From NCBI GenBank assembly GCA_964404795.1, contig CAYOLI010000002.1, forward strand, positions 71,766 through 135,765: 64,000 nt of DNA, in the 5' to 3' direction. The notes under the pieces are model-generated. The model had not been told where the DNA came from, ran no database searches, and was given only the letters and a program-made list of their open reading frames with translations. This DNA is from an uncultured Candidatus Saccharibacteria bacterium (GTDB lineage Bacteria > Patescibacteriota > Saccharimonadia > Saccharimonadales > 2-12-FULL-41-12). Position numbers and translations under genes: made by a program. Position 1 is the stretch's first letter. Each line of letters opens with the position of its first letter. Shown piece by piece: positions 20,975 through 59,065 of this stretch.

Positions 20975-22138
20975 TTATCTGTTGCCTTTAGCTCGGTTGT
21001 GTGGCTTGCAGAGCATTTCGCAGTTTTCTATATCCGTTGAGCCGCCCTTGCTCCAGGCGCTCACGTGGTCGGCATCCATATCATTTAGTGCCCAGATTTT
21101 GGTCTTACTTGCATCATGGCCAATGGCGCAGTACGAACAGTTAGACTTGCCTTGAGCTTTTGACTTGTCGGTTTGCTTGGCATACGCAGTCTTTTTGATC
21201 GGATCATCAAACACACGAATATTCAGCAATTTAGTGTCTTTTTCTCCACCCAAAATATATTCAAAAATACCTTTTCTATCTTTGACGTCAAAATCTGTAT
21301 ATAGCTTACGAACCTTAGCAGATACTTCCTCTGGGCTATATGTCTGTTCGTGATACTGCTCGTACAATCTGCCCCACTCTAGCCCACGCATTTCGCTCTC
21401 TACATCTGTAAATACGCTAGAAACCCAGCTAATTACCTTATCAAAATACCTTTTTAGCTCGTCTATATTTTTATCATAGCGATGTTTACTCATATATTTG
21501 TCTATTTGTCCGCTACTCACCCACTCTAGCGCTCGCTCTAAAAAGTCTTGGCGATTTACACTGCCAGATATATATGCACTCCATTTCTGTATATTACTAT
21601 TAGCGCTATTACTAAACTCTTCACGAGCTTTTGTCACAAACGGCCCAGAATACACAGCGTTCAAAATTTCTTGGCTATTTAGGGGCACTCCAGCGATATT
21701 GATAGTTCGAAACCAATCTTTTATTTCGGTTTCTTCGCCTTTGCAAACATACACCAGTAGTTTTGTTTCCATAATCTGCTTTTGCATATCACTGGCCAAG
21801 CCAGAAAAATATTGTTGATTACCATTTGCGTCTTTGGCTGCAAAAAGCCCACGTACAAACCTACCAATACTTGTGATACGTTGTTGGCCGTCTAGCACCT
21901 CAAAATCACCACTGTTGGTAGTATTAAAATACAAAAGCCCAATCGGATAACCTTTTATCAAACTATCTATTACCGCAACATCTTTTTTACCATCTGCATA
22001 AATATAACTTCGCTGATATTCTGGCTGAATAGTCAGTTTGCCGCCAAGCCCAAAAAGCCCTTTGCCCTCTAGCTCGTTATATTCAAAACCGTCAACAATA
22101 TCTGCTACAGTAAAATCTGTTTTGAGTGTTGTTCTCAT
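20975..22138 (-). CDS. DUF262 (ParB-like NTPase, GmrSD N-terminal type) fused to a C-terminal HNH nuclease
   Basis: [10 protein letters not shown] and [10 protein letters not shown] are DUF262 hallmarks. The C-terminal CSYC...[32 protein letters not shown] is an HNH motif. Confidence 0.85.
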
Positions 22139-22155
22139 GATTCCTCTTCGCTCTA

Positions 22156-22392
22156 TTAAAAGATCTTTATTATTTCTTCTCTAGAAATTTTATACTCTTT
22201 CTCCAAAGAATTACATATTTCTCTCGCCGTACCTTGTGTTATTTTTCGGTGCCTAGGAACTATTAATATCTTATTACTTTCCTGGTGAATATATTTGCCG
22301 TGCTTGCTACCACCAACACTTACAAAACCTTGCCGGACCAGCAGAGCAATCAGTTTCCTCGTTTTGATTGTACGATAATATCCTAGCCCCAC
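22156..22392 (-). CDS. hicA: HicA-family mRNA interferase toxin
   Basis: 78 aa. [22 protein letters not shown]...[16 protein letters not shown] matches the HicA/YcfA pattern. Confidence 0.8.
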
Positions 22393-22398
22393 TATCTT

Positions 22399-22737
22399 TT
22401 ATTTTGCAAAAACTAAACTTTTGCTTTTTTGGTTTTTCTTGGCGAAATCTATGTCTTCTGGCAACAACGATGGCATACTGGTTTTCATATATTCTGGGAA
22501 ATCCAAATATGTTAGTACTGCATCGTTTACCATCTTGACAATCCCTTCCTCAGTTTTACTCTCAGTAATAATCAGATTATTCAACTTCTCATTGTCTAGC
22601 TTTATAACTTTTGCAGTCCAATATCTATCCTTGTTATCGTATCTAATAACAACATCAATAGAACGAGGCATTTTGTGCTGATATGCCGCTATTTCTACTG
22701 TGCTTGGTTTATTAAGCTTAGAGAGTATTGTTTTCAT
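22399..22737 (-). CDS. hicB: HicB-like antitoxin (N-terminal domain only)
   Basis: The gene ends 6 nt upstream of hicA. YWTAKVIKLDN...TESKTEEGIVKMVNDAVLTYL resembles the HicB partial RNase-H-like fold. No C-terminal DNA-binding domain was recognised. Confidence 0.5.
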   Translation of the reverse strand: MKTILSKLNKPSTVEIAAYQHKMPRSIDVVIRYDNKDRYWTAKVIKLDNEKLNNLIITESKTEEGIVKMVNDAVLTYLDFPEYMKTSMPSLLPEDIDFAKKNQKSKSLVFAK

Positions 22738-22744
22738 GATGTTA

Positions 22745-22753
22745 ATTATACCA
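22745..22753 (-). promoter_or_regulatory. extended -10 promoter element (TGGTATAAT) for hicBA, predicting a leaderless transcript
   Basis: Read on the minus strand, the element is TGG-TATAAT. Only 7 nt separate the -10 from the hicB ATG, and no SD is present. Confidence 0.45.
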
Positions 22754-22885
22754 TAAAATCTCTGTTATCTATCTCAGTATGCCCAGACAAAATGGCGCAT
22801 TCACCTCAATAAAATATGCATAATGACTTTACGCTGGTGTCTTATAAACAAAGAACCTCACGAGGTCTTAAGACAAAGCGAGGAG

Positions 22886-22954
22886 CTACAAATCTATATT
22901 AGCACGCTCAGGTAACTCTGCTACGGTAAAATCTGTTTTAAGTGCCGTTTTCAT
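22886..22954 (-). pseudogene. 22-codon relic of a second DUF262-family gene 5' end
   Basis: It encodes [22 protein letters not shown]. The first 38 nt (22917-22954) match 22101-22138, the start of the intact DUF262-HNH gene, at 33/38 positions. Its ATG overlaps the TGA of the 165-aa gene as ATGA. Confidence 0.7.
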
Positions 22955-23448
22955 GTCTTAATCTCCTCAAGATTATTTTTTTGTCTAAACTCCTTATCTT
23001 GAATAACCACCGTACCACAGAAAACATTGCATCTATCTATAAAGTTATCAAAAAAAATCCTGTCTAATTCACCCTCTTCTTTAACCCTCTCACCGCTACT
23101 AGACATATAATTTATTTTGTACATAAAGTGTACTCGACTATCATTTTGTTTCAACGTAAATCCATGTGTAATCTTATTCCTATCGTTTACAAGATTTTGC
23201 CATTCATTGCCGGTCCAAGTAATAGAACAGTCTTTGTAGATTTTCTTAACTTTCTCGATAATACTCCCTGCTGTTTCACTCAATAGTTGTTCCTGGTCAA
23301 CGGAATGGTCTAACTTTCTCATAAAATGTAATAAAGAATAGTGGGTCATACCAAACAGAACAATTGCAGCACCTATAGTCGCATAGAAATCCCTATCTAG
23401 GTTTAAAATGCCTAGTATATTACTGTCCATAACTTTGTCTATACTCAT
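22951..23448 (-). CDS. hypothetical protein (165 aa) with an Rx4H string (possible HEPN-like)
   Basis: The gene is coupled by an ATGA overlap to the methyltransferase gene. It contains NDRNKITHG, the R-N-x-x-x-H pattern typical of HEPN RNases. The fold is unverified. Confidence 0.5.
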   Translation of the reverse strand: MSIDKVMDSNILGILNLDRDFYATIGAAIVLFGMTHYSLLHFMRKLDHSVDQEQLLSETAGSIIEKVKKIYKDCSITWTGNEWQNLVNDRNKITHGFTLKQNDSRVHFMYKINYMSSSGERVKEEGELDRIFFDNFIDRCNVFCGTVVIQDKEFRQKNNLEEIKT

Positions 23449-24506
23449 TTTTCTACCTTTCTGTACTTGATTAATACCCTAGCGTAGATTTCTTTATTGT
23501 TAATAGTAAATCTTTTACCATAATTCGGATTATCTTTAACATAGCGATCAATACCAATAATCTCGAATTGTTCGGGATTATATTTATCTAAGAAGGTTAT
23601 CGGCACGCCCATCGCACCCTCATAATCCATAGGGATATCAGCAGTTTTATCAACATTTATAGCATCGTAGTTGTCATACCTTGGATAACTCTCTGGCGTA
23701 TATTTTTTATATAGCACCAAGTCCTCATGCCTTTCCTGGTAATCTAAATTGGTGAACCAACGAACGCCTTTTACTCTAATATATTTTTTTCCTTCCTCAT
23801 CTATCCTATAACCAGCAGCTGTTAACGGATAATCATCTGGCACCTGGAATTCCCTATCACCACTATGAATACTCGCTCCCATCCACAATTTATTGTCTTT
23901 AATTAACTTGAAACATTCTTTATAAGTAATTGCATTAACATTACCTATTATCAAAAACTTTTTGTTGTTGCGCACTATTTGGTCAATATATTCTCTAAAC
24001 AAACTAAATGGCGGATTGGTTACTACTATATCGGCTTGCTTCAGTAGCTCCACACATTCGGGGCTTCTAAAATCACCATCGCCACTCAATGGTTGCCACT
24101 CGTTATGCTTGTTTTCGCGCAGTTGCTGGGCTACATCTTTAAGGTCGTATGCGCCATCACCATCTATATCACCAACATCTTTTATAATAAACTTATTGGC
24201 TGTTACTTTTGGTCGCCCTTTTTGTGGGGCTAAAGTTTTATCATCACCAAAAAGTCCTAGCTGAGTGTTAGCAATTGGCGATGGTTTATAGCTAGTAGTA
24301 ATTAACCCTTTTAGCCCCAGATGCTTAAAATTCAGCACAAAATAGCGAAAAAAGTTACTTTCATACGGATCGTCGCAGTTGCAATACACCACTTTACCCC
24401 TAAATTGTTCTTTATAGTGCTTTAGCTCGTTTTCTATATCTACAAGCTGAGTATAGAACTCGTCTTTTTTAGCTTGTTTTGCTTTGTGTAGAGTACGCTG
24501 TGCCAT
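23445..24506 (-). CDS. N6-adenine DNA methyltransferase, M.EcoRI family
   Basis: KDEFYTQ, VVYCNCDDP, GDGDFRS, the catalytic motif VVTNPPFSLFREY (NPPF) and YDNYDAINV...MGVPITFLDKYNPEQFEI are present. From memory, these are collinear with M.EcoRI. Confidence 0.85.
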   Translation of the reverse strand: MAQRTLHKAKQAKKDEFYTQLVDIENELKHYKEQFRGKVVYCNCDDPYESNFFRYFVLNFKHLGLKGLITTSYKPSPIANTQLGLFGDDKTLAPQKGRPKVTANKFIIKDVGDIDGDGAYDLKDVAQQLRENKHNEWQPLSGDGDFRSPECVELLKQADIVVTNPPFSLFREYIDQIVRNNKKFLIIGNVNAITYKECFKLIKDNKLWMGASIHSGDREFQVPDDYPLTAAGYRIDEEGKKYIRVKGVRWFTNLDYQERHEDLVLYKKYTPESYPRYDNYDAINVDKTADIPMDYEGAMGVPITFLDKYNPEQFEIIGIDRYVKDNPNYGKRFTINNKEIYARVLIKYRKVEK

Positions 24507-39972: not shown

Positions 39973-41061
39973 TTATTTTTTCGTCACCAACCACTGTTGA
40001 TAAGCACTTATCAGCTCGTCAAGATTGCCATCAAGCACACCTTCTGCATCACTTGTTTCATAATTGCTCCGCAGGTCTTTAACTTGCTTATATGGATGCA
40101 AAACATAATTTCTTATTTGGCTTCCCCACTCATTAGCAGCTGATGGACCCTTGAGATCAGCAATTTTGCTAGCATGCTGATCTTTTTTAAGCATCATTAA
40201 TTTTGACCTTAAGATGGTTAGTGCAGTTTCTTTATTCTGGATCTGGCTTCTTTCGTTTTGTATACTCACGCTTATCCCTGTGGGCAAATGAGTGATTCGT
40301 ACTGCAGAATCGGTGGTATTAACACTTTGACCTCCATGACCACCGGCTCGAAAAACGTCTATTTTTAAATCTTTTTCTTCTATCTCTACCTGGTCAGGAG
40401 TATCTATTTTAGGTAAAACTTCTACTTTCGCAAAACTAGTTTGACGCAAATTATCAGCATTAAATGGACTTAATCGAACTAAGCGATGGACTCCATTTTC
40501 ACTCTTTAATTTACCATAAATCAAGCTACCACTTATTGCCACCGTCACACTTTTTAAGCCAGCTATATCTCCTGGTGATTCATCAAGCACCCTAACTTTA
40601 GCACCTATTTTTTCTGCATACCGATAATACATTCTGAGTAGCATTTCAGACCAATCTTGTGCATCTGTGCCTCCTGCCCCGGCATAAATTGAAAGAACCA
40701 CATCATACTCATCATATTCTCCGCCATAAATAAGATCCTGCGATAAAGCACTGAACTTATCTTGAGCTAACTTTAGTTGTTCACTTAAATCTCCATACAG
40801 TGATTCGTCTTCAAGATTGCATAGATCAATAATCTCCTTAACTTCTTTTTCAAGCGTCTTCCAAGAAGACACTTGTTCGTTCAAGTTGGCAATTTTTTGC
40901 ATAGTATTTTTTGCACTTTCGCCATCTTGCCAGAAATTAGTCCCTCGAGAAATTTCTTCTAACTTTTGTATTTGGGCTTTTTTGTCATTGATATCTAGTG
41001 CATCCATTGATTTGGATACATCATCAAATAATTTTTTAGCCCGAGATAAAATATCCTGCAT
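39973..41061 (-). CDS. prfB: peptide chain release factor 2 (single continuous ORF, no programmed frameshift)
   Basis: The SPF tripeptide (RLSPFNA) and GGQ (GHGGQSVN) are present, and the full-length N-terminus lies in the same frame. Confidence 0.9.
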   Translation of the reverse strand: MQDILSRAKKLFDDVSKSMDALDINDKKAQIQKLEEISRGTNFWQDGESAKNTMQKIANLNEQVSSWKTLEKEVKEIIDLCNLEDESLYGDLSEQLKLAQDKFSALSQDLIYGGEYDEYDVVLSIYAGAGGTDAQDWSEMLLRMYYRYAEKIGAKVRVLDESPGDIAGLKSVTVAISGSLIYGKLKSENGVHRLVRLSPFNADNLRQTSFAKVEVLPKIDTPDQVEIEEKDLKIDVFRAGGHGGQSVNTTDSAVRITHLPTGISVSIQNERSQIQNKETALTILRSKLMMLKKDQHASKIADLKGPSAANEWGSQIRNYVLHPYKQVKDLRSNYETSDAEGVLDGNLDELISAYQQWLVTKK

Positions 41062-47598: not shown

Positions 47599-48207
47599 CT
47601 AAAATTTGTCGTCAAGATTTATTGTAGGCGGAGATAACATAATTTCTTTCCCTTCGATGGCTATTGTGCGGTCAAGTTTTCTCAAGATATCTGGGTTATC
47701 AAATCTACCAATCTGATCGCTATAAAGAATTGCGATGCTACAATGTGAATTATAACTAGATCCAGCAAACCTCGTCGAACGAAGAGGAAACCCGAGGTCC
47801 GAATATACACCGTGCAGTAGAGCGTTTTCTTGTATTAATTCAGGGCTAGTCAGCTCAAAGCCGAGCTTATTTAGATTTTTACCTCCACCAAATAATGCGA
47901 GGGAACCGATAACTGTAGCTATATTCTCTTTTGCTGAGGGGATTCGCTCCAGTACGTCGCATGTTGCCGGCCCCTTTAGATAATGATTCTCCGAAAATAA
48001 GCTTGCGCCAATTACGGTAACGCCAAGAGTATTCTCGGTAAATATCCTCCCTCCCCCTCCTTCCAGATAAGGTGATAGCGTACTCTCGACAACATCAAAA
48101 ACTTCGCGAGACTCTGGTGCGATCGGTCGCCTCACAGCATAAATACCACGCTGTTTTGCGATATCTGATAACTTGGCCTTCGGTTTTTGAGGCCTTCGGT
48201 TTGACAT
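47599..48207 (-). CDS. hypothetical protein (202 aa)
   Basis: An ORF with plausible coding composition. No motif was recognised. Confidence 0.45.
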   Translation of the reverse strand: MSNRRPQKPKAKLSDIAKQRGIYAVRRPIAPESREVFDVVESTLSPYLEGGGGRIFTENTLGVTVIGASLFSENHYLKGPATCDVLERIPSAKENIATVIGSLALFGGGKNLNKLGFELTSPELIQENALLHGVYSDLGFPLRSTRFAGSSYNSHCSIAILYSDQIGRFDNPDILRKLDRTIAIEGKEIMLSPPTINLDDKF

Positions 48208-48246: not shown

Positions 48247-48936
48247 CTACAACAACTTACTAACAGCGACAATAGCCGCCGTCTCGGACCTTAGAGTATG
48301 GTTGCTAAGTTGCATATGTGCCAAGTAATTATCGTTAAAAAGTTCTTGCTCCGAATTACTCCAGCCACCTTCTGGCCCAATCAGCAAACCATATTCTTTT
48401 TCCAGCTCAATGACTGGTTGATGCTCAGAAGTAGAATCGCAAACTATCAATTCGATTTTGTCTTTGTATTGATCTATGGCCTTTGTTAGATGCATCGGCT
48501 CTCTAACTCTTGGTATGTCAGATCTGCCACATTGTTCGCTCGCTTCAACTATAATTTTTTTTGCGCGATCAATATTGAAATTAGTACGAATTGTCCTTTC
48601 TGAAATGATTGGCACAAAGTTAGACACTCCAAGTTCTGTACATTTTTGCAATATATGCTCGTTGTTGTCTTTTTTTAATAAACTCCATAACAAATATATG
48701 TGTATTTTTGGCAAATTTTGCTCTAGCTCGGTTTTTAATTTTAAATGCGCCTCGGTCTTCGAAATCTCAACTATTTCGTACAAACGATCGGTGGTCACGC
48801 CGTCAAACAATACGACATTCTGCCCAGCGCTAAATCTTAATACACGATTCCATTGCCAAAGAAGTTCTTCATCATGCAACCAAAAATCTTGCTTTAATTT
48901 AAAATCCTCACCGACGAAAAAACGATGAACCCGCAC
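48247..48936 (-). CDS. rsmE: 16S rRNA (uracil1498-N3)-methyltransferase RsmE
   Basis: RVHRFFV at the N-terminus and LLIGPEGGWS at the C-terminal SPOUT knot are present. Confidence 0.85.
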   Translation of the reverse strand: MRVHRFFVGEDFKLKQDFWLHDEELLWQWNRVLRFSAGQNVVLFDGVTTDRLYEIVEISKTEAHLKLKTELEQNLPKIHIYLLWSLLKKDNNEHILQKCTELGVSNFVPIISERTIRTNFNIDRAKKIIVEASEQCGRSDIPRVREPMHLTKAIDQYKDKIELIVCDSTSEHQPVIELEKEYGLLIGPEGGWSNSEQELFNDNYLAHMQLSNHTLRSETAAIVAVSKLL

Positions 48937-48948
48937 CCCGATACTCTC

Positions 48949-49734
48949 TTATTTACCAAGAGCTGCGATAATTATAATCCCAATCGCTACCTTGCTTGCC
49001 AAATCAATAAACAAATGATTTCTCTCGATAAAAAGATATTCTTTCCAACCCTTTTTGTCTGCTAAATACATGTACTGATTGAGTCCGTACAAAACGAAAC
49101 TAGCAAAAACTATGACTGCTAGAGCATAAACACTCCAAGTAAAACGTTCCATGCCGTAAACAGACGTTCCTACAACATTCGAAACAATCGGTAGCCAGGC
49201 AACTAGCCCCGCAATAATACTTAAAACGAACGGCAACCATTTCTTACTCGATGAGAATATTGCCTCTCTTTCAGAGAGCCATCCAAATAATGAAGCAATA
49301 ATAACTAGCCCAATAATTACTTTTACCTCTGCAATTTCTGTTAAGCCAGAAAGCATAGCAATAATTCCTACACTAAGGGCAGAAGTTATTCCGATAAAAA
49401 TCCACTTGTAGGCAGATAGTTTCTTCTTTACGGTTGTTTCGTAGTTAGTTCGTAGCTTTGTCGCAAGTAGCAAAGCAAATACCGCACTAACGCCAAACAT
49501 AAAAACGAATAAATACCTAATTTGCACACTGAAAAGCTCTTTAAGAGCAGGAGTTAACACAACTTCGTTACCCTGAACCAAAGCATTTCTTGCCATATAG
49601 TTTAGCCAAACGGTAACTGTCGTGCTACTTAGAGCCAGCGCCGATGTAACGGCTAGAACGACCGAAATGACGGCCGTCGCAATATTAATTTTTTTAATCT
49701 GATCTTGTAAAACTTTCTTCGTTGGTACCTTCAT
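48949..49734 (-). CDS. heliorhodopsin-like 7-TM protein with TM7 lysine
   Basis: Seven hydrophobic segments follow a basic N-terminus, which implies an N-in topology. FGWLSERE, LPFVLSIIAGLVAWLPI and YLFIERNHLFIDLASKVAIGIII are collinear with heliorhodopsin blocks recalled from memory (FGWLxE, IAGxVPW, YLxGERxYIxLSLVAKS). Confidence 0.65.
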   Translation of the reverse strand: MKVPTKKVLQDQIKKINIATAVISVVLAVTSALALSSTTVTVWLNYMARNALVQGNEVVLTPALKELFSVQIRYLFVFMFGVSAVFALLLATKLRTNYETTVKKKLSAYKWIFIGITSALSVGIIAMLSGLTEIAEVKVIIGLVIIASLFGWLSEREAIFSSSKKWLPFVLSIIAGLVAWLPIVSNVVGTSVYGMERFTWSVYALAVIVFASFVLYGLNQYMYLADKKGWKEYLFIERNHLFIDLASKVAIGIIIIAALGK

Positions 49735-49852
49735 AATGCCTCAACTATATCACACTACTCTTCTTATGTTTTCTTTTTTTGTACAATATCACTAACGTTA
49801 GTAATAAATAATAAAACCAACGACTCAATTGTTTGAATTTAACGTTGAGAAA

Positions 49853-57203: not shown

Positions 57204-58256
57204 ATGAACAATAAAGAACATCAACTAAGAGAAGAGCTTAAAAAGATACAAGACCAACTGCAAAACCCTGCAATCTATACTGATCCAAGTTATCCAAAAT
57301 TAGCAAAAAGACAAAAAGAACTCGAAGAAATTATTAGTTTGTTTAATCAATTAGCAAAAAACCAACAGGCATACGAGGCATCACAGAAGCTTGCACAATG
57401 CAAAGACGAACTAGCTGACCTCGCAAAGGCCGAGCTTGAGGATTTAGAAAAGCAAAAAGGCAAAATCCTAAAAGCACTAGATAGAGCATTAACACCAAAA
57501 GACCCCAACGATGATCGTGATGTAATAGTAGAAATTAGAGCCGCCGCTGGAGGAGATGAATCAAGCTTGTTTGCTGGAGAGCTATATCGTATGTACGCCA
57601 GGTGGTCAGAGAACCACGAATACAAAGTTGAGCACATCGATGATAGCCCAAACGAAGTTGGTGGATACAAAGAAATTAGTTTTGCCATCAGAGGCGAAAA
57701 CGCTTATAAAAATCTCAAATTTGAAGCCGGCGTGCATCGAGTCCAGCGTGTTCCAACGACCGAATCACAAGGCCGGGTCCATACCAGTACTGTTACAGTT
57801 GCCGTGATGCCCGAGGCCGAAGAAACCGATTTGCAAATTAATCCCAACGACCTTAGAATTGATGTTTTCAGAGCCAGTGGCCACGGTGGACAGAGTGTAA
57901 ATACTACCGATTCGGCTGTTAGAATAACTCACTTACCTACCGGCACAGTGGTTACTTGCCAGGATGAAAAGTCGCAGCTCAAAAATAAAGACAAAGCAAT
58001 GGGCGTTCTAAGATCGCGCTTATTACAAGAAAAAATTGATACTCAGAACGCAAAATTATCGGAAGCCCGACGAAAGCTAATTGGTTCTGGAGACCGAAGC
58101 GAGAAAATTCGAACCTACAATGTTCCTCAAGACCGGATTACCGACCACAGAATCGGCTATAGTCGTAGTAACGTACTAGGTGCGCTAGATGGCGACATCG
58201 ATGATTTAATCGAAAACCTACAATCTTTCGAACATAAATTAATTCAAGCCGAATGA
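57204..58256 (+). CDS. prfA: peptide chain release factor 1
   Basis: RVQRVPTTESQGRVHTS provides the PxT-type motif and GHGGQSVN provides GGQ. Confidence 0.95.
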   Translation: MNNKEHQLREELKKIQDQLQNPAIYTDPSYPKLAKRQKELEEIISLFNQLAKNQQAYEASQKLAQCKDELADLAKAELEDLEKQKGKILKALDRALTPKDPNDDRDVIVEIRAAAGGDESSLFAGELYRMYARWSENHEYKVEHIDDSPNEVGGYKEISFAIRGENAYKNLKFEAGVHRVQRVPTTESQGRVHTSTVTVAVMPEAEETDLQINPNDLRIDVFRASGHGGQSVNTTDSAVRITHLPTGTVVTCQDEKSQLKNKDKAMGVLRSRLLQEKIDTQNAKLSEARRKLIGSGDRSEKIRTYNVPQDRITDHRIGYSRSNVLGALDGDIDDLIENLQSFEHKLIQAE

Positions 58257-59065
58257 CAATTGCTAACTGGCTGTTTGACTCAATGATAAAACTCAAAGAC
58301 GCCGGTGTTGACGCCCCCAGGCGTGACGCTCTGGTCTTACTAGAAGATACCCTATCAAAAGAACGCTCTTGGGTACTAACACATTCCGATTACGACCTAA
58401 ACACTAAAGAGTTAAACAAAGTAAACAAGCTCATAAGTAGCAGGATTAAACGTATCCCGCTGGCCTACATAAGAGGCAAAACGTGGTTTTACGGCCGATT
58501 TTTTTTAGTTACTAAAAGTACTCTAATTCCCAGACCAGAATCTGAAATACTTATTGACCTTTTAAAAGAGTTACCGAAGATTGATCGACTCATAGATATT
58601 GGAACCGGATGTGGTGCGCTAGCAATTACGGCAAAACTAGAACTGACAATCCCCGAAGTTATTGCGACCGACATAGATGAATCGGCCCTGTCTGTAGCCA
58701 AAAAAAACAACTCGTTGCACAAAACCACTGTAAATTTTGTGGTAGGGTCTCTCTTGGGTCCAATAGTCCACGATATCGAAAAAAATACCACAATTATCGC
58801 TAACCTACCCTACGTGCCAACCGATCTAAAACTAGAACCCGAGCTCTACCAAGAACCTCAATTTGCGTTGTTCTCTGGAACAGACGGACTCAACCACTAT
58901 CGAAAATTTTGGAATGAGATCCAGCAACTGCCAATTAAACCCAAATTTATTCTTTGTGAGTCATTAGATGCTCAGCATCAAAAACAAAAAGAACTTGCAA
59001 GATTGGCTGGCTACAAGCACAAATCTTCGGTGGGCTTGATTCAAATTTTCGAAACGACAAAATAG
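58253..59065 (+). CDS. prmC: release factor glutamine N5-methyltransferase PrmC/HemK
   Basis: The gene is coupled to prfA by an ATGA overlap. It carries DIGTGCGALAI (SAM motif I), and its motif IV reads NLPY rather than the usual NPPY. Confidence 0.8.
   Translation: MTIANWLFDSMIKLKDAGVDAPRRDALVLLEDTLSKERSWVLTHSDYDLNTKELNKVNKLISSRIKRIPLAYIRGKTWFYGRFFLVTKSTLIPRPESEILIDLLKELPKIDRLIDIGTGCGALAITAKLELTIPEVIATDIDESALSVAKKNNSLHKTTVNFVVGSLLGPIVHDIEKNTTIIANLPYVPTDLKLEPELYQEPQFALFSGTDGLNHYRKFWNEIQQLPIKPKFILCESLDAQHQKQKELARLAGYKHKSSVGLIQIFETTK

Follow-up and report, generated by a model that had tools for sequence, protein, structure and literature searches.

A Saccharibacteria heliorhodopsin-family protein with its candidate Schiff-base counterion on helix 7

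Within a 64-kb window of contig CAYOLI010000002.1 from an uncultured Candidatus Saccharibacteria bacterium (the window being the whole stretch of DNA that was analysed), we examined a 261-residue open reading frame (ORF; 48949..49734, minus strand) that encodes a heliorhodopsin-family protein in which the third transmembrane helix (TM3) is free of acids and the sole carboxylate of the membrane core, D244, lies on TM7, four residues before the Schiff-base lysine position K248. An earlier sequence-only reading of this DNA had given the ORF the same span and length without stating its strand; the layout it described is real and is no isolated oddity, being common to a whole deep clade. Judging by conserved residue patterns, we moderately favour the view that this is a retinal-binding photosensor in which K248 would carry the chromophore, D244 would act as its only counterion and the output would pass through a conserved cytoplasmic network.

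Family membership and the Schiff-base site

The ORF encodes a true heliorhodopsin, both by family and by fold. Residues 14-255 match the Pfam family Heliorhodopsin (PF18761) with an E-value of 5.6e-32 and 111.4 bits (cut-off 26.7), which is the sole Pfam family found at E<=10 and leaves no match to Bac_rhodopsin (PF01036), and the protein scores narrowly above the cut-off of the NCBIfam HeR equivalog NF038020 (108.4 bits vs 100). In phmmer searches of the PDB it matches all solved heliorhodopsins, including TaHeR (6IS6, E~1e-15) and 48C12 (6SU3, E~2e-15), at an overall identity to canonical heliorhodopsins of ~21%, and it matches no schizorhodopsin structure at E<=10. For the structural comparison we used an AlphaFold model built on an alignment of 30 clade members (predicted local distance difference test, pLDDT, 91.8; predicted template-modelling score, pTM, 0.87; model numbering is protein numbering minus 1), which superseded a mediocre 10-sequence model with a pLDDT of 73.8, an AB loop below 50 and PDB matches at template-modelling scores (TM-scores) of 0.63-0.75. 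The 30-sequence model contains seven transmembrane helices, the long AB beta-hairpin and, between TM2 and TM3, a short helix on the cytoplasmic side, and so recovers both the seven hydrophobic segments and the long beta-prone TM1-TM2 loop that had been read from the sequence. The ten best Foldseek matches in the PDB are all heliorhodopsins, with TaHeR (6is6) at TM-scores of 0.87/0.90 and a root-mean-square deviation of 2.1 A. TM-scores above 0.75 are reached by heliorhodopsins only, and other structures attain 0.64 at best. The family assignment on which the sequence-only reading had staked its interpretation is thus borne out by the PF18761, NF038020 and PDB fold matches alike. Identity as a type-1 rhodopsin or a schizorhodopsin was also considered and is ruled out by the Pfam, PDB sequence and Foldseek results.

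Residues were paired through a MAFFT alignment with 48C12; the numbering of the 48C12 sequence used fits ~30 residues named in PMC7049168, and the sequence agrees with the PDB alignment. Every collinear block that had been quoted for this protein is present and pairs without gaps with solved heliorhodopsins: LFGWLSERE with LFGWLQEKY of 48C12, LPFVLSIIAGLVAWLPI with LPFWFGCIAGIVPWIGL, YLFIERNHLFIDLASKVAIG with YLRGERAYIVLSLVAKSALA, YKWIFIG with FRWVEYS (48C12) and YRWFEYS (TaHeR), and FIDLASK with ILSLVAK and VLSLVAK. In this register, K248 (codon AAG, 48991..48993) sits in mid-TM7 at the Schiff-base position of K241 in 48C12 and is also aligned with the TaHeR lysine. The canonical counterion position, occupied by E107 in 48C12, E108 in TaHeR and D85 in bacteriorhodopsin (PMC7049168), holds F113 (codon TTT, 49396..49398), and there is no acid anywhere in TM3. 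Four residues before the lysine, S237 of 48C12 is replaced by D244 (codon GAT, 49003..49005), the proposed sole counterion, giving the motif D244-L-A-S-K248 instead of SxxxK. Since the crystal structure of 48C12 places S237 at the D212 position of bacteriorhodopsin and E107 at the D85 position (Kovalev et al., PMC7049168), describing this as a type-1-like DxxxK arrangement, in the manner of D212/K216, is structurally correct.

The polar cavity around the Schiff base has changed as well, with H23, H80, N101 and Y108 of 48C12 corresponding to S24, A87, S107 and I114. The first of these pairings is slightly less certain, its sole basis being the TM1 part of the MAFFT alignment, with N16=N17 as anchor. 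All four of the substitutions or retentions previously read at the active site, namely the lysine, the Glu-to-Phe change, the two His residues replaced by Ser and Ala, and the Ser-to-Asp change, therefore hold, the Ser for H23 with the reservation just given. Because no Asp or Glu is buried in any of the helices TM1 to TM6, a register shift cannot restore a TM3 counterion, and a conventional glutamate revealed by register correction, an outcome considered from the start, is ruled out. By contrast with the cavity, the cytoplasmic network is preserved almost residue for residue: Y92, R104, W105, E149, Y226 and E230 of 48C12 correspond to Y98, K110, W111, E155, Y233 and E237.

The gene, identified by the ORF call and the profile matches, runs on the minus strand from an ATG at 49732-49734 to a stop at 48949-48951, and all segments of the protein given here share that strand. 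Its product opens with a Lys-rich cytoplasmic N-terminus (MKVPTKKVLQDQIKK; 49690..49734), from which an N-in topology had been predicted; this prediction is backed by a K/R count of ~18 on the predicted cytoplasmic (N-terminal-side) loops vs 5 outside. By the AlphaFold model and the alignment, TM1 comprises residues 6-34 (49633..49719) and holds N17 and S24 (48C12 N16 and H23), and is followed by the extracellular AB loop, a predicted beta-hairpin of residues 39-49 and 60-71 in the model (49522..49620) that is characteristic of heliorhodopsins. TM2 (residues 72-91; 49462..49521) holds S83 and A87 (48C12 S76 and H80), and the acid-free TM3 (residues 108-128; 49351..49413) carries K110-W111-I-F113 against R104-W105-V-E107 of 48C12. 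TM4 (residues 134-160; 49255..49335) includes G151 and the conserved FGWLSE motif with E155 (48C12 E149), TM5 (residues 167-193; 49156..49236) includes W180 (48C12 W173), and TM6 (residues 200-224; 49063..49137) includes F213 and Q220 (48C12 F206 and Q213). TM7, finally, spans residues 233-259 (48958..49038) with Y233, E237 (48C12 E230), D244 and K248.

The N-terminus is short here. Most relatives carry a cytoplasmic N-terminal tail of 40-100 residues composed almost wholly of K, T, A and S, with ~30% K/R and almost no D/E, a composition that can be likened to that of histone H1. Such tails occur in the TM7-Asp clade and in neighbouring RWD-type clades (bearers include P0009-P0025, P0036, P0043, P0049, L005:7806-8000 and L006:7806-8020), and in the window protein and those nearest to it there is only a stub of 10-13 residues. 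PDB entry 9VFC, considered as a long-N-terminus relative, is the eukaryotic heliorhodopsin Cv06 and lies outside the clade.

Clade-wide pattern and covariation with the lysine

To place the protein among its relatives, we relied on an exhaustive HMMER search of 1.84 billion cluster representatives, which returned 829 heliorhodopsin-like clusters; a word-indexed homologue search gave 10 proteins with the single query and 10 again with a 30-sequence profile, and was unsuitable as a survey. The comparative work rests on an alignment of the best 150 of the 829 clusters together with close homologues and proteins from genome loci, in which 161 proteins have all three focal positions (107, 237 and 241 in 48C12 numbering) aligned. 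A neighbour-joining (NJ) tree of 162 leaves, including the 48C12 reference, was computed with those three columns removed.

This tree puts the query in a 37-leaf clade (bootstrap 64%, or 84% with one intruder allowed). Among its Lys-bearing representatives (50%-identity clusters), Asp or Glu occupies position 237 in 29/29 and Lys occupies position 241 in the same 29/29, down to ~30% identity. Position 107, on the other hand, is acidic in 0/29 and is filled by F (8), L (7), Y (6), A (4), V (3) or M (1). The cavity substitutions are likewise widespread, the H80 column being Ser in 21/29 and the N101 column Ser in 28/29. Three more members (P0161-P0163) follow the same pattern, and within the clade there is a single K-to-R replacement (P0009). 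The PDB heliorhodopsins include no solved structure from this clade. Scanning the GTDB species, one genome each, recovered six relatives' loci, all from Candidatus Saccharibacteria or Saccharimonadales metagenome-assembled genomes, in keeping with the candidate phyla radiation (CPR) origin that had been surmised for the protein, and the clade is probably deep and restricted to Saccharibacteria.

The identity of the residue at 241 predicts where, and whether, an acid is found at the other two positions. In counts that take in the 48C12 reference, with Lys at 241 (n=117) an acid is present only at 107 in 72 proteins, only at 237 in 35, at both in 3 and at neither in 7; exactly one site is thus acidic in 107/117, and the two sites are almost mutually exclusive (Fisher p 2e-19, a value in which phylogeny is not corrected for). 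With Arg at 241, an acid is kept in 12/13. Where 241 is neither K nor R (n=33), an acid is found at 237 in 0/33, and 26/33 have none at either site. On the NJ tree, parsimony calls for no fewer than eight gains of the 237 acid, mostly where the 107 acid had already been lost, and one loss, which falls on the branch on which the Lys was lost. On the simplest reading of these patterns, a single buried carboxylate, at either site, would be kept only to balance a buried positive charge at 241, as one would expect of a relocated counterion. That an acid is retained when Lys becomes Arg and is mostly lost when the positive charge is gone speaks for D244 as the residue that pairs with the charge of K248, and the rarity of K-to-R replacement in the clade suggests that selection acts on the lysine itself, as expected for a Schiff base, and not simply on any cation.

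Variants without Lys, or with Arg in its place, make up 45 of the ~160 heliorhodopsin-like sequences. The 13 Arg-for-Lys representatives include P0034, P0076, P0081, P0083, P0092, P0096-98, P0124, P0130, P0134 and P0009; by pairing a buried Arg with a carboxylate, these proteins might imitate a protonated Schiff base held permanently in the dark state.

Lysine loss has also occurred next to the query. The window protein forms a Lys+Asp trio with P0002 and the L001 protein (NJ bootstrap 92%), whose sister is a group of six (P0003-6, L002 and L003; NJ bootstrap 200/200; 58-60% identical) in which K248 has become V, I or L, D244 has become N, S121 has become L and G151 has become C. All proteins of both groups are exactly 261 residues long. 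Since the nearest sister lineage lost the lysine, chromophore binding in the query is not to be assumed; however, the additional changes of the Lys-less lineage (S121 to L, G151 to C and D to N) suggest that the query, which has none of them, is still chromophore-competent. Taking the clade as a whole, we consider it an evenly balanced proposition that the counterion moved from helix 3 to helix 7, convergently rebuilding a schizorhodopsin-type site in a scaffold of inverted topology, and that closely related species of the clade alternate between Lys+Asp and Val/Ile/Leu+Asn forms at the same locus, both under purifying selection.

Retinal binding and competing explanations

In the mechanism we favour, charge pairing with the Schiff-base lysine would have moved from TM3 to D244 on TM7, one helical turn before the lysine. 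K248 would bind all-trans retinal that the cell scavenges from its host or its neighbours, a source proposed because the phylum is reported to lack blh (PMC9296517). D244 alone would then stabilise the protonated Schiff base, as Asp184 does beside Phe70 in schizorhodopsin, a role for which both the covariation and this precedent speak, and F113 would fill the water-filled polar cavity of canonical heliorhodopsins. The light signal would be relayed to the cytoplasmic side via Y98, K110, W111, E155, Y233 and E237, whose conservation points to such a role, and the task of the protein would be slow sensing or regulation, not pumping.

The pocket itself speaks for chromophore binding. W111, S118, G151, W180, F213 and Q220 are all kept, and the summed side-chain volume over 22 pocket and Schiff-base positions, a crude measure, is 2774 cubic angstroms in the query vs 3086 in 48C12. 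The FArhodopsin blocking position, which from that paper's numbering we place at bacteriorhodopsin T90 and 48C12 S112, is the small Ser118 here. Together these features argue that the retinal pocket of the query is not occluded. Comparison of Lys-bearing with Lys-less relatives shows only a small difference in side-chain volume, which is no proof that the pockets of the latter have been filled.

Several observations weigh against a retinal-binding photosensor. The query departs at several residues that have been called conserved throughout the heliorhodopsins (E107, H23, H80, N101, Y108, N138, M141 and P172), and an Asp and a Lys one turn apart could be a plain intramembrane salt bridge. The dN/dS ratio between two of the Lys-less sister genes is ~0.07, which signifies strong purifying selection and hence a retinal-independent role for the scaffold. 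Lys-bearing FArhodopsins do not bind retinal (bioRxiv 10.1101/2025.04.29.651185), so a lysine is not by itself decisive. On the comparative side, the main clade has 64% bootstrap in an NJ tree only, drawn from the best 150 of 829 clusters, and phylogeny is not fully accounted for in the covariation statistics.

In one alternative, the protein is a retinal-free scaffold with a light-independent membrane or regulatory role, like its Lys-less sisters, and K248 and D244 form just a buried i/i+4 salt bridge. In its favour are the purifying selection on those sisters, the loss of Lys in 45 of ~160 heliorhodopsin-like clusters, the Lys-bearing FArhodopsins that bind no retinal, the dismantled polar Schiff-base cavity of the query, the lack of blh in the phylum (PMC9296517) and the gene content of the window: the search for retinal-synthesis genes that had been suggested alongside the sequence-only reading found no blh, no crt gene and no type-1 rhodopsin among 40 window genes scanned against Pfam. 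Yet a plain salt bridge should tolerate Arg, and Lys is found in 29/29 clade representatives with one K-to-R case; the pocket positions of the query are unfilled; the S121L, G151C and D-to-N changes of the Lys-less lineage are absent from it; and uptake of retinal from outside is quick in heliorhodopsins and in rhodopsins of Saccharibacteria. Rhodopsin-bearing Saccharibacteria are reported to be without blh, with type-1 rhodopsins that need only seconds to take up external retinal (PMC9296517). On balance a retinal-free role for the query is possible but doubtful.

Two further explanations would keep the chromophore and change what surrounds it. The combination of a TM3 Phe with a TM7 Asp is that of the inward-pumping schizorhodopsins, and a proton-transporting heliorhodopsin is described in PMC9448325, so the protein might be a light-driven ion transporter that moves protons like schizorhodopsins or the viral heliorhodopsin V2HeR3. 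This is very improbable given that D244 is the sole acid of the core, with no further buried carboxylates or polar residues for a conduction path, that the extracellular half is hydrophobic like that of non-transporting heliorhodopsins, and that the topology is inverted relative to schizorhodopsins, to which the protein has no sequence similarity in the PDB at E<=10 (and non-heliorhodopsin structures do not exceed the TM-score of 0.64 given above). Slightly less probable still is an anion-dependent chromophore, in which bound chloride or nitrate would be the counterion and D244 secondary. Mutants E107A/Q of 48C12 are cited in PMC7049168 as binding anions, and small residues (A, V, G) stand at 107 in some clade members, but the query has a bulky Phe there and has exchanged the cavity-lining H23 and H80 for S and A, and the strict conservation of Asp at 237, together with its loss alongside the Lys, points to the carboxylate itself.

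Genomic setting and relation to known systems

The gene lies in a conserved array that reads rseP, a CPBP protease gene, proS, greA, [lysS, msrA], the heliorhodopsin gene, [a TrmA-like methyltransferase gene], rsmE, a PD-(D/E)XK nuclease gene, serS, hpf and secA. This order can still be traced at loci whose heliorhodopsin-like proteins share only ~35% identity, which indicates long vertical inheritance. Upstream, a 118-bp spacer on the minus strand (49735..49852) separates greA from the heliorhodopsin gene and contains a single promoter-like site, a weak one (49837..49808). In relatives this place is taken by lysS, and often by msrA as well, both of which are missing here from the window. Downstream, after a 12-bp gap, is an rsmE-type RNA methyltransferase gene (48247..48936, minus strand), which is probably co-transcribed with the heliorhodopsin gene; it is a syntenic neighbour to which no functional link is shown. 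The neighbourhood contains no signalling partner, only conserved synteny of housekeeping genes.

The msrA gene (PF01625) directly adjoins the heliorhodopsin-like gene in 6/11 distinct relatives' loci, among them L003:7491-7967, L005:7255-7743, L006:7256-7753, L009:4412-4939 (on the opposite strand, in a locus otherwise rearranged) and L010:4441-4938, and is missing in the window, L001, L002 and L004. This adjacency fits the published idea that links heliorhodopsins to photo-oxidative stress. The syntenic lysS is of class I (PF01921) in L001-L004, L009 and L010 and of class II (PF00152) in L005 and the JGI contig of P0161 (compared regions L001:6427-7959, L005:5546-7069 and that contig), a class switch that looks like non-orthologous replacement at one syntenic site; lysS is absent from the whole 64-kb window. 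Just downstream of rsmE, a 202-residue protein without a Pfam match (47599-48207, minus strand) is kept in the window, L001, L002, L003 and L006 at 36-55% identity.

Elsewhere, the window contains a defence or restriction cluster on the minus strand (20975-24506), consisting of a GmrSD-N/HNH endonuclease gene (20975-22138), an EcoRI-type adenine methyltransferase gene (23445-24506, E=8.6e-146) and an ORF of 165 residues between them. There are also two full-length class-I release-factor paralogues with PCRF and RF-1 domains (39973-41061, minus; 57204-58256, plus), the second followed by a prmC-like methyltransferase gene (58253-59065). An Rfam scan of the whole window returned no match and no rRNA.

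How far the TM7-Asp layout departs from what has been described can be gauged from three sources. An analysis of 479 heliorhodopsins found E107, S237, H23 and H80 highly conserved in all and described no altered subfamily (PMC7049168). Chiriac et al. 2022 (PMC9166423) report about 80 heliorhodopsins in Saccharimonadia, where the family is thus already known to be common, and apply an SxxxK criterion, with SLVAK, SLIAK and SFVAK the commonest motifs; they mention neither a DxxxK class nor a missing TM3 carboxylate. In titles and abstracts of the literature on heliorhodopsin and counterion we found no description of a TM7-Asp heliorhodopsin, though other journals may hold one. The sequence-only reading had been aware of no description of the combination, which holds for heliorhodopsins as far as found and does not hold for rhodopsins at large, since schizorhodopsins already pair Phe in TM3 with Asp in TM7 (PMC7148096).

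What heliorhodopsins do physiologically is still disputed, and work on their chromophore chemistry has been confined to proteins bearing the Glu107/Ser237/His23/His80 site. The present clade would test whether the scaffold tolerates a counterion of the type-1 or schizorhodopsin kind and how this affects colour, Schiff-base pKa and the long photocycle, and it would offer starting points for heliorhodopsin-based optogenetic or voltage-indicator engineering. With Lys-less sisters at the same locus, it would also allow the light-independent work of the scaffold to be studied by comparison; if the alternation of forms is real, this would amount to a natural on/off experiment, in which the core heliorhodopsin function would not strictly require light. 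More broadly, it adds to the picture of episymbiotic CPR bacteria that keep retinal proteins though unable to make retinal.

Set beside known systems, the protein is closest to canonical heliorhodopsins (48C12, PDB 6SU3/6UH3; TaHeR, 6IS6), with which it shares the family, the fold (TM-scores 0.8-0.9), the N-in topology, the AB beta-hairpin, the TM7 Lys, the Y92/R104(K)/W105/E149/Y226/E230 network and the pocket residues W173, F206 and Q213. It differs from them in the TM3 Phe for Glu, in DxxxK for SxxxK, in an S/A/S/I cavity and in changes at N138, M141 and P172. The heliorhodopsins of Saccharimonadia reported by Chiriac et al. 2022 (PMC9166423) come from the same phylum and family. Bacteriorhodopsin (D212/K216) has the same DxxxK on helix 7, but type-1 rhodopsins have the inverted topology, and their pumps normally carry both D85 and D212, whereas the query has no TM3 Asp. 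Rh-noK and the flotillin-associated rhodopsins resemble the sister lineage of the query in conserving a scaffold with a light-independent role, with the Lys absent from the sister lineage and from Rh-noK; unlike the query, they are type-1 derivatives, and the query keeps Lys and Asp and has no pocket-blocking substitutions. The closest likeness at the Schiff base is to the schizorhodopsins (SzR1, SzR4), which have a TM3 Phe at the D85 position and a TM7 Asp as the only Schiff-base carboxylate, and which rely on that Asp to the extent that D184N forms no pigment (PMC7148096). They nevertheless belong to another family and are N-out inward proton pumps that form trimers and have a Glu as acceptor on the cytoplasmic side. 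The likeness is a convergent or a retained ancestral feature and not a sign of membership.

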